From: Spirochaetia bacterium
GTDB taxonomy: Bacteria > Spirochaetota > Spirochaetia > SP-2023
Reading direction: 5' to 3'
DNA: 64,000 nt
NCBI GenBank assembly: GCA_965263295.1
Contig: OZ253665.1
Location: forward strand, 832,001-896,000
The notes under the pieces are model-generated. The model was not told the DNA's origin and ran no database searches. It saw only the letters and a list, made by a program, of their open reading frames with translations. Shown here one piece after another: positions 30,101 through 30,570 of the stretch; the first letter of the stretch is position 1, and every line of letters starts with the position of its first letter. The translations under genes were made by a program, and so were the position numbers.

Positions 30101-30545
30101 CGTATCTTCGTTTATTACTGGCATGCCTGGCGGCGGTATATCCGGCAGATTTAATTGGGCTTTATTGTCATTTTCTTCAACTTGATCTTCATCCCAATGG
30201 TATATCTTCGGCGTGTCTTTTATGCGCAGGCCCCAGAAAATTGAGCACTGATCCCATGTCTTCTTGTCGACGACGCGCTCACCTTCGGCGCGACGGCTAT
30301 CATAGATGAGTTGGCCTTTCAGTTCGAATTTGTCGACAACATATATCTTCTGCGTAGCATCCGCTGCATTAGCATTGACCAGGCTTTCATCCTGTAACTT
30401 AATGCGAAAAACACTTTGGGGGGTTCCTTGGCCTTCTTCGGTATCATTATCATTACAGCCTGCGAGCAGCAGGAAGGCCGATATATATATATATATATAT
30501 ATATATATGGTGACTTAGAAAACTAAAATAATTTTTGCGTGGCAT
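27191..30545 (-). CDS. Giant repetitive lipoprotein, phase-variable; frameshifted (OFF) at an (AT)14 tract in the signal peptide
   Basis: RBS aaggagg then ATG 30545 MPRKNYFSFLSHH(IY)n; the long frame resumes SAFLLLAG^CNDNDT and runs unbroken through the ORF-track ORF to 27191. Confidence 0.85.
28486..29616 (-). repeat. 195-bp (65-aa) tandem repeat: five apparently identical units plus one partial diverged unit
   Basis: ccagagcgctatctccgata recurs at 28486, 28681, 28876, 29071, 29266 and 29461. Confidence 0.97.
29617..29961 (-). repeat. Older degenerate 240-bp-period duplication (acidic E/T-rich linker)
   Basis: TGGGKSTS..EE.QIVKKEVE.DT occurs twice; tcttttttaacaatttgag at 29631 and 29871. 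Confidence 0.8.
30481..30508. repeat. (AT)14 microsatellite, contingency locus
   Basis: 28 nt of alternating AT inside the signal-peptide coding region. Confidence 0.98.
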
Positions 30546-30570
30546 CTGCTTGCCTCCTTGGATTCAAAAC

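Follow-up and report, generated by a model that had tools for sequence, protein, structure and literature searches.

In the opa genes of Neisseria, CTCTT pentamer repeats are located within the leader-peptide codons of outer-membrane beta-barrels. The oipA/hopH gene and other Hop genes of Helicobacter pylori carry a (CT)n tract in the codons of the signal peptide; its unit number determines the reading frame, several different lengths are ON, and both ON and OFF alleles are found among strains (PMC10564699). Vmm-type lipoprotein genes of the Mycoplasma mycoides cluster have poly-TA tracts of N = 10-16 in the promoter that alter transcription (PMC3053259), and around 20 dinucleotide repeats per genome, many of them in genes for BspA-like LRR surface proteins, have been reported for Candidatus Mycoplasma girerdii, where measurements in a single natural population revealed variants of different length, often with an OFF form as the main allele (PMC5476646). 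Among spirochaetes, the tpr genes of Treponema pallidum feature promoter poly-G tracts and, in tprA, 3 or 4 CT units (PMC3656149). We found no description of an (AT)n tract as coding sequence in a signal peptide in the literature searched, which covered few subscription journals.

Here, we describe a gene for a predicted surface lipoprotein of around 1,100 residues, in whose signal-peptide codons a perfect (AT)14 tract very probably acts as a slipped-strand translational phase (contingency) switch. The mechanism as such is classical, and what is of interest is the use of the AT unit as coding sequence, its occurrence in four unrelated gene groups, and the spirochaete host. This reading had first been proposed in an earlier note made from the letters of the locus, and it is now supported by eight more tract genes of mixed state, by the runs found in paralogues, by a public allele (P0002), and by the intact open reading frames of the OFF genes. 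The genome consists of a single contig (C1) of 2,407,850 bp with 49.4% GC, and the presence of three genes for FlaA (periplasmic flagellar sheath), compared to none in 14 control genomes, identifies the organism as a spirochaete. All positions without a contig name refer to the window, i.e., the whole stretch of 64,000 nucleotides that was analysed (C1:832001-896000).

The locus shares with the Hop genes of H. pylori a dinucleotide repeat within signal-peptide codons and a frame set by unit number. Unlike there, the unit is AT (encoding Ile-Tyr) and not CT, the products are lipobox lipoproteins and not beta-barrels, the families are unrelated, and the host is a spirochaete with intact MutS/MutL. 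Similar to the Neisseria opa genes, a coding repeat lies in a hydrophobic leader, and each copy would switch independently to give a combinatorial surface display, but the opa repeat is a pentamer in a single family of beta-barrels while four unrelated groups are concerned here. With the Vmm-type genes, the locus has in common the repeat unit, the range of lengths (10-16 there, 9-14 here), and the presence of several surface lipoprotein genes per genome; unlike the Vmm promoter tract, the tract described here comes after the ATG, in coding sequence, and alters the reading frame. The layout of a promoter switch of the Vmm type is not seen at this gene, with the tract located 37 nt downstream of the ATG and the promoter-like site around 175 nt upstream of it. 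The likeness to Ca. M. girerdii lies in LRR surface proteins, since one of the four groups (group B, see below) encodes LRR_4 domains, but that organism is a mollicute, the example shown for it is a CA repeat, and a signal-peptide position is not stated in the text consulted. Repeat-length-dependent changes of frame or promoter in spirochaete surface-protein genes are likewise shared with T. pallidum tpr, where they involve very short CT runs or promoter homopolymers and not, as here, AT tracts of considerable length within the signal peptides of lipoproteins.

The tract itself, reported by the earlier note as a microsatellite in signal-peptide codons, occupies positions 30481-30508 on no particular strand and was recovered by tandem repeat search (TRF: 14.0 copies, 100% matches) as well as by a genome scan. 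On the minus strand, a ribosome-binding site AAGGAGG (30559-30553; conserved in the leaders of paralogues) is followed after a 7-nt spacer by an ATG (30545-30543), just as the note had read it, and the (AT)14 begins 37 nt downstream of this ATG, behind the codons of the signal-peptide N-region (30509-30545, minus strand; MPRKNYFSFLSH and the opening base of the His codon that follows, with basic residues R3 and K4). The frame opened by ATG 30545 has the form MPRKNYFSFLSHH(IY)n followed by a stop, in full MPRKNYFSFLSHHIYIYIYIYIGLPAARRL*, and is closed by the TAA at 30455-30453, so that the present OFF state gives a 30-residue product. The neighbouring frame, which is +1 relative to ATG 30545 at n = 14, reads ..SAFLLLAGCNDND.., contains the rest of the h-region and the lipobox SAFLLLAG/C at 30455-30481, and stays open for 1095 codons until the stop codon at 27191-27193 (gene body 27191-30481, minus strand), as direct translation of this stretch confirmed. 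From ATG 30545 to the lipobox frame, the distance is 64 nt, and the gene is therefore in frame only if n is a multiple of 3. The same arithmetic agrees with the rescue of the frame at (AT)12 or (AT)15 that the note had given, i.e., by the loss of two units or the gain of one, and with its 1118 residues at n = 15 ((30545-27194+1+2)/3 = 1118 codons). An ON product would be read as MPRK.. / ..(IY)nSAFLL / LAG|C, in which the N-region is basic and a hydrophobic core leads into a lipobox of the form L-[AS]-[GA]-C.

Neither the list of open reading frames nor public gene calling had found this start. Both the list and the public call P0004 (977 aa) begin at an internal ATG at 30122-30124 on the minus strand (MPVINEDT..), as does the call of a second public allele (P0003), and the ORF from this internal ATG has no signal peptide. 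The annotation is thus corrected to a lipoprotein gene with its start at 30545, in place of a gene for a 977-residue cytoplasmic protein.

We propose that the tract would gain or lose whole AT units by slippage during replication. Multiples of 3 (a run equivalent to 6 units is observed; 12, 15, and 18 are predicted) would join the ATG behind its ribosome-binding site and the N-region to the lipobox and the 1095-codon body, while at n = 14 translation would end after 30 residues and the gene would be OFF. Switching of this kind should be reversible and probably frequent, and each ON length would result in a signal peptide of a different length. A tract made of ATA and TAT codons encodes Ile and Tyr in every frame and contains no stop codon in any frame of either strand, which is why it would be tolerated in the hydrophobic core. 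Several features expected of contingency loci are present: The tract is perfect, exceeds the background maximum of n = 5 in this genome, lies in the 5' coding region, and is built of a 2-bp unit; moreover, the OFF allele is otherwise intact, and a single additional unit restores its frame.

We then asked, following a suggestion of the earlier note, whether other genes have an (AT)n tract at the equivalent place, and eight further genes with (AT)9-14 were found. The genome contains ten tracts of (AT)n≥9 with 14, 14, 13, 13, 13, 12, 12, 11, 11, and 9 units, compared to an expectation of 5e-6 under a first-order Markov model, and the length distribution of (AT)n is bimodal (710 tracts of n = 3, 34 of n = 4, 6 of n = 5, none of n = 6-8, and 10 of n = 9-14). 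In nine of these ten cases, the tract separates an ATG and a short N-region with basic residues from a hydrophobic segment that ends in Cys and heads a long ORF. The tenth, an (AT)13 at C1:96351-96376, lies outside signal peptides around 95 nt upstream of a gene for an EamA-like transporter and just after a TTGACA; it is the only one that is positioned upstream of a gene as in the Vmm-type layout and may be a candidate for a promoter or leader switch. Other repeats in the genome include (CTGCT)84 at C1:694411-694830, (AAGCTACCTC)14 at 1937638-1937777, (ATT)9 at 2198468-2198494, and 13 poly-G/C runs of 10-11 (around four times the expectation), two of which (54325 and 968082) are found at a distance of 19-30 codons from the start of ORFs longer than 400 codons and could be further contingency loci.

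The nine tract genes fall into four groups without similarity detectable by blastp between groups. Group A comprises the gene described here (862k) and a paralogue at 317k; group B comprises the genes at 1046k (3594 codons), 18k, 1922k, 722k, and 2330k, with an N-terminus of the type ..LIFSCQVEDFDDPKPT and with LRR_4 and Lipoprotein_17 (PF04200) domains; the third group is a singleton at 2106k; and the fourth is a gene at 1500k that encodes a Peripla_BP_2 solute-binding protein. Five of the nine are in frame (317k with n = 13, 18k and 1922k with 12, 722k with 11, and 2330k with 9), and the frame is broken in the other four (this gene and 1046k with n = 14, 2106k with 11, and 1500k with 13), where 1500k is OFF from its ATG preceded by a ribosome-binding site and would be in frame only from an upstream TTG that has none. 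Behind the tract, all four OFF genes have intact open frames (1095 codons in this gene, 3594 at 1046k, 333 at 2106k, and 322 at 1500k), and each of them is one or two AT units away from ON. Five of nine genes in frame is no different from the one third expected by chance for random lengths (binomial P(≥5) = 0.145), and what matters is the mixture of ON and OFF states together with the intact ORFs, not the number of genes in frame. With the same device in eight other genes for secreted proteins or lipoproteins, single cells could display different combinations of products.

This coexistence of in-frame and out-of-frame lengths among the loci is what is expected of switching at the DNA level and also bears on a different explanation, namely that the protein is made despite the frame by ribosomal frameshifting or by RNA-polymerase slippage on the (AU)n sequence, in which case the tract would tune the level of expression and there would be no switch. 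A predicted AU hairpin of 12-14 bp in the mRNA could in principle pause ribosomes, but neither a slippery heptamer nor a known frameshift signal was seen at the locus, and we consider expression of this kind extremely improbable.

Group A has further paralogues with short or decayed runs at the equivalent position of the signal peptide, all of them in frame: the genes at 1898k and 1978k are identical copies with (AT)4 (..KFSIYMLTLLLLAGC), the one at 1200k has (AT)5, the one at 1201k a degenerate run, and the one at 458k a (TG)5. Group B has one more member, its sixth, at 932k, which contains an interrupted run (..FLHIYYAYVQILLAGLIFSC), again in frame. Of the short (AT)4-5 runs in the genome (approximately 80), only four lie in lipoprotein signal peptides, and all four belong to paralogues. 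Since short or decayed in-frame runs are found at one and the same position, the long tracts look like expansions of a short run coding for Ile-Tyr, as far as can be judged from the sequences. AT repeats would suit the core of a signal peptide because they are free of stop codons on both strands and because Ile and Tyr are tolerated there. The 608-aa paralogue of group A is present as two identical inverted copies around 80 kb apart (C1:1898179-1900002 and 1977081-1978904), and the gene call of a public allele of it (P0011) begins at a Met that lies in another frame and lacks the signal peptide, an OFF state of a different kind.

The comparison between strains that the note had called for could be made with two public alleles of the gene, P0002 and P0003, which come from a collection of 5.8 billion proteins and were compared at the protein level. 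P0002 (365 aa; on a contig of 57.5 kb) begins with MPRKNYFSFLSHHIYISAFLLLAGCNDTEEG and can be written as MPRKNYFSFLSHH-IYI-SAFLLLAGC, i.e., it has the same start and N-region as the gene described here (the first 13 residues are shared), only three Ile/Tyr residues, and an in-frame continuation into the lipobox. Read back from the peptide, whose codons could differ, this run corresponds to no more than (AT)6, and it is in frame, in line with the rule of multiples of 3. P0003 (783 aa; on a contig of 217 kb) has been called from an internal Met equivalent to ATG 30124, a start from which we infer an out-of-frame 5' region in this allele as well. Taken together, these comparisons indicate that ATG 30545 is the real start, that the length of the tract is strain-dependent, and that both states exist at the locus: n = 14 and OFF here, a run of at most six units and ON in P0002, and, by its called start, OFF in P0003. 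On the evidence of these three alleles, tract length and state thus both differ at the locus. Alleles that are naturally in frame (P0002, P0005, and P0006) occur with 3, 7, and 8 Ile/Tyr residues, which bears out the expectation of the note that different ON lengths change the length of the signal peptide.

The central repeats are wholly different among the three alleles, with 5.8 copies of a 65-aa unit here, acidic repeats of the TGTEETASE type in P0003, and none in P0002, so that the protein appears to vary between strains also in size and sequence. Directly behind the lipobox Cys, an (AATGAT)2 at 30440-30454 encodes CNDNDT, and P0002 has a single AATGAT copy (CNDT), so that the mature N-terminus has a small slippage polymorphism of its own, the second in this gene. 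The early end of P0002 fits one extra A in an A5 run, around positions 28177-28181 of the window in our sequence.

The lengths of dinucleotide tracts are error-prone in assemblies. An error of the consensus or assembly, with a true tract of (AT)15 or (AT)12 and a gene that is simply ON and invariant, would have this general weakness in its favour together with the behaviour of the tract in public sequencing data. Parts of the stretch are contained in seven sequencing runs, four of which have at least half of its words (3 studies), and no RNA run is among those listed. In the assembled contigs of four runs (X1-X4; 3 samples, 2 studies), both flanking contigs break off within the tract, 20-27 letters in, and the tract is never bridged, although the word depth of the flanks is 40-120 in X2-X4; the strain in X4 is around 2% divergent in these flanks. 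Such contig breaks would fit heterogeneity in length, yet contigs cannot show it, and the breaks are no evidence either way. The pattern among genes and strains speaks against a miscount: The four OFF genes among the nine would need different corrections (+1/-2 or -1/+2 units), an independent assembly, that of P0003, was also called from the internal Met, and the much shorter run of P0002 means that length does differ between strains. Even if the tract had been miscounted, a perfect repeat of 28-30 bp would still be a hotspot of slippage. We therefore regard an assembly error as very unlikely to account for the OFF state and retain the phase switch as the preferred reading.

The genes concerned have a very narrow distribution. 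Searches of 40 related genomes for group A and of 20 for group B found no member; an alignment of the group-A N-terminal domain gave no match in collections of genome and metagenome contigs, and neither did a degenerate pattern of the first 13 codons in the metagenome contig collection. Among 1.84 billion protein representatives, a profile of group A retrieved only nine proteins, the protein search with group B returned the query itself only, and a search of the Atlas proteins found no match. Tracts of (AT)≥9 are similarly rare among the 41 genomes of the class, with ten in this genome, four in three others, and none in the three congeneric genomes. None of the four tracts in other members of the class lies in a signal peptide, and the longest runs reported for the three congeners, one (AT)7 and two (AT)6, are all within gene bodies. 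The AT device in signal peptides thus appears to be species-specific among the genomes searched; its conservation across species finds no support in the congeners, which, at the level of these sequence comparisons, would count against the switch reading. One of the four tracts outside this genome belongs to a distant relative in the class (G039), where a TTGACA immediately precedes an (AT)14 at C1:2324907-2324934 and a ribosome-binding site with ATG follows around 45 nt further on, a layout like the promoter-spacer phase switch of the Mycoplasma Vmm type.

The absence of the family from 40 related genomes and two contig collections would also fit a dead gene, that is, a fixed inactivating frameshift in a decaying lineage-specific family with AT tracts as neutral microsatellites. 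Signs of decay exist, since P0002 is truncated at 365 aa, so that at least one allele of the gene may be decaying, and since the group-B gene at 722k is short with a stop inside its match. Decay of the whole set is hard to reconcile with the frames that are intact behind the tract, 1095 codons in this gene and 3594 at 1046k, or with the finding that every OFF gene is only one or two units from ON. The signal-peptide position that the tracts have in common across four unrelated gene groups would likewise be unexpected for neutral microsatellites, and we judge a dead gene to be very improbable and a phase switch to be the better reading of the locus.

A loss of mismatch repair as the cause of tract instability was considered and rejected, as MutS and MutL are both encoded and intact. 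The organism is thus not a mismatch-repair-deficient mutator like H. pylori, which counts against the switch reading. The enzymes for lipoprotein maturation are in place, with Lgt (PF01790, LGT; 188.5 bits) and LspA (PF01252; 109.2 bits) both scoring above the respective cut-off.

From its N-terminus to its C-terminus, the gene body encodes a conserved beta-sandwich domain, acidic repeats, an array of 65-aa repeats, and a C-terminal domain. The array corresponds to a 195-bp tandem repeat at 28485-29622 (minus strand; 5.8 copies, 99% identical) that is absent or replaced in both public alleles, and its 65-aa units give a weak match to Pfam DUF6661 in which the whole protein reaches 30.1 bits against a cut-off of 27 and no single stretch passes alone. 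AlphaFold models the N-terminal domain as a beta-sandwich (pLDDT 77) and the C-terminal part with a pLDDT of 66, and neither model had a match in the PDB by Foldseek at E≤0.001. The C-terminal model, the weaker of the two, has a local match only (probability 1.00, TM 0.45 on target, E = 0.03) to 3k63, a PF04200 lipoprotein domain of Ureaplasma, and no Pfam match to PF04200 (Lipoprotein_17) itself was obtained for the lipoprotein of this locus. The product is best described as a variable, repeat-rich lipoprotein with predicted lipidation and predicted exposure at the cell surface. Two LRR_4 proteins built of 63-bp (21-aa) repeats with higher-order periods of 189 and 315 bp, encoded at 13225-15894 and 16575-17765 of the window, represent a further repertoire of variable surface proteins.

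The genes nearby are ordinary chromosomal ones, such as pheT, uppP, dprA, and metE. A terminator-like hairpin with a 13-bp stem and a T run (31114-31142, minus strand; terminator scan) ends the upstream gene, which encodes a PKD-domain protein, and suggests that the lipoprotein gene is its own transcription unit. Its putative promoter, TTGACT-16 nt-CATAAT at 30720-30747 (minus strand; 10/12 consensus), is located around 175 nt upstream of the start and is a consensus match only, given that eight promoter-like sites are found in the region compared to 5.9 expected in shuffles. The 11-bp unit GGGATATCTAT, detected by tandem-repeat search, occurs three times in tandem in the 5' leader (30571-30602, minus strand) and may be a candidate operator or leader element; the motif, which includes a GATATC palindrome, is also found in the leaders of paralogues with three copies at 317k and two copies at 1898k/1978k. 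A leader hairpin that pairs with the ribosome-binding site in a fold of the single sequence was rejected after no consensus pair was found across six paralogue leaders. Intergenic arrays of units of the TTTCGTGG/CCACGAAA type lie at 30800-31100 and 35445-35480; their 8-mer occurs 187 + 116 times in the genome compared to around 37 expected per strand, and in four metagenome runs, contigs that cover this stretch are 20-200 times as deep as the flanks. The arrays are a dispersed repeat of high copy number.

More speculatively, the nine loci might form a private "AT phasome" in which at least four unrelated gene groups have independently taken (AT)n into the core of their signal peptides, and in which the different ON lengths (3, 7, 9, or 11 Ile/Tyr residues) also act as a rheostat that grades the efficiency of export or lipidation. 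We consider this extension rather doubtful, but if it were true, nine loci that are each ON or OFF would allow for up to 512 combinations.

For the organism, the findings point to repeat-driven surface variation in a poorly sampled lineage of spirochaetes, for which three other species of the genus could be compared. Among the variable products are an LRR protein of 3594 residues and a solute-binding protein. The annotation of the eight other tract genes needs care equal to that of the gene described here. In studies of colonisation, antigenicity, or phage/host interactions, cell-to-cell differences in nine products are to be expected, and the lengths of these tracts in read data would directly report selection in vivo.
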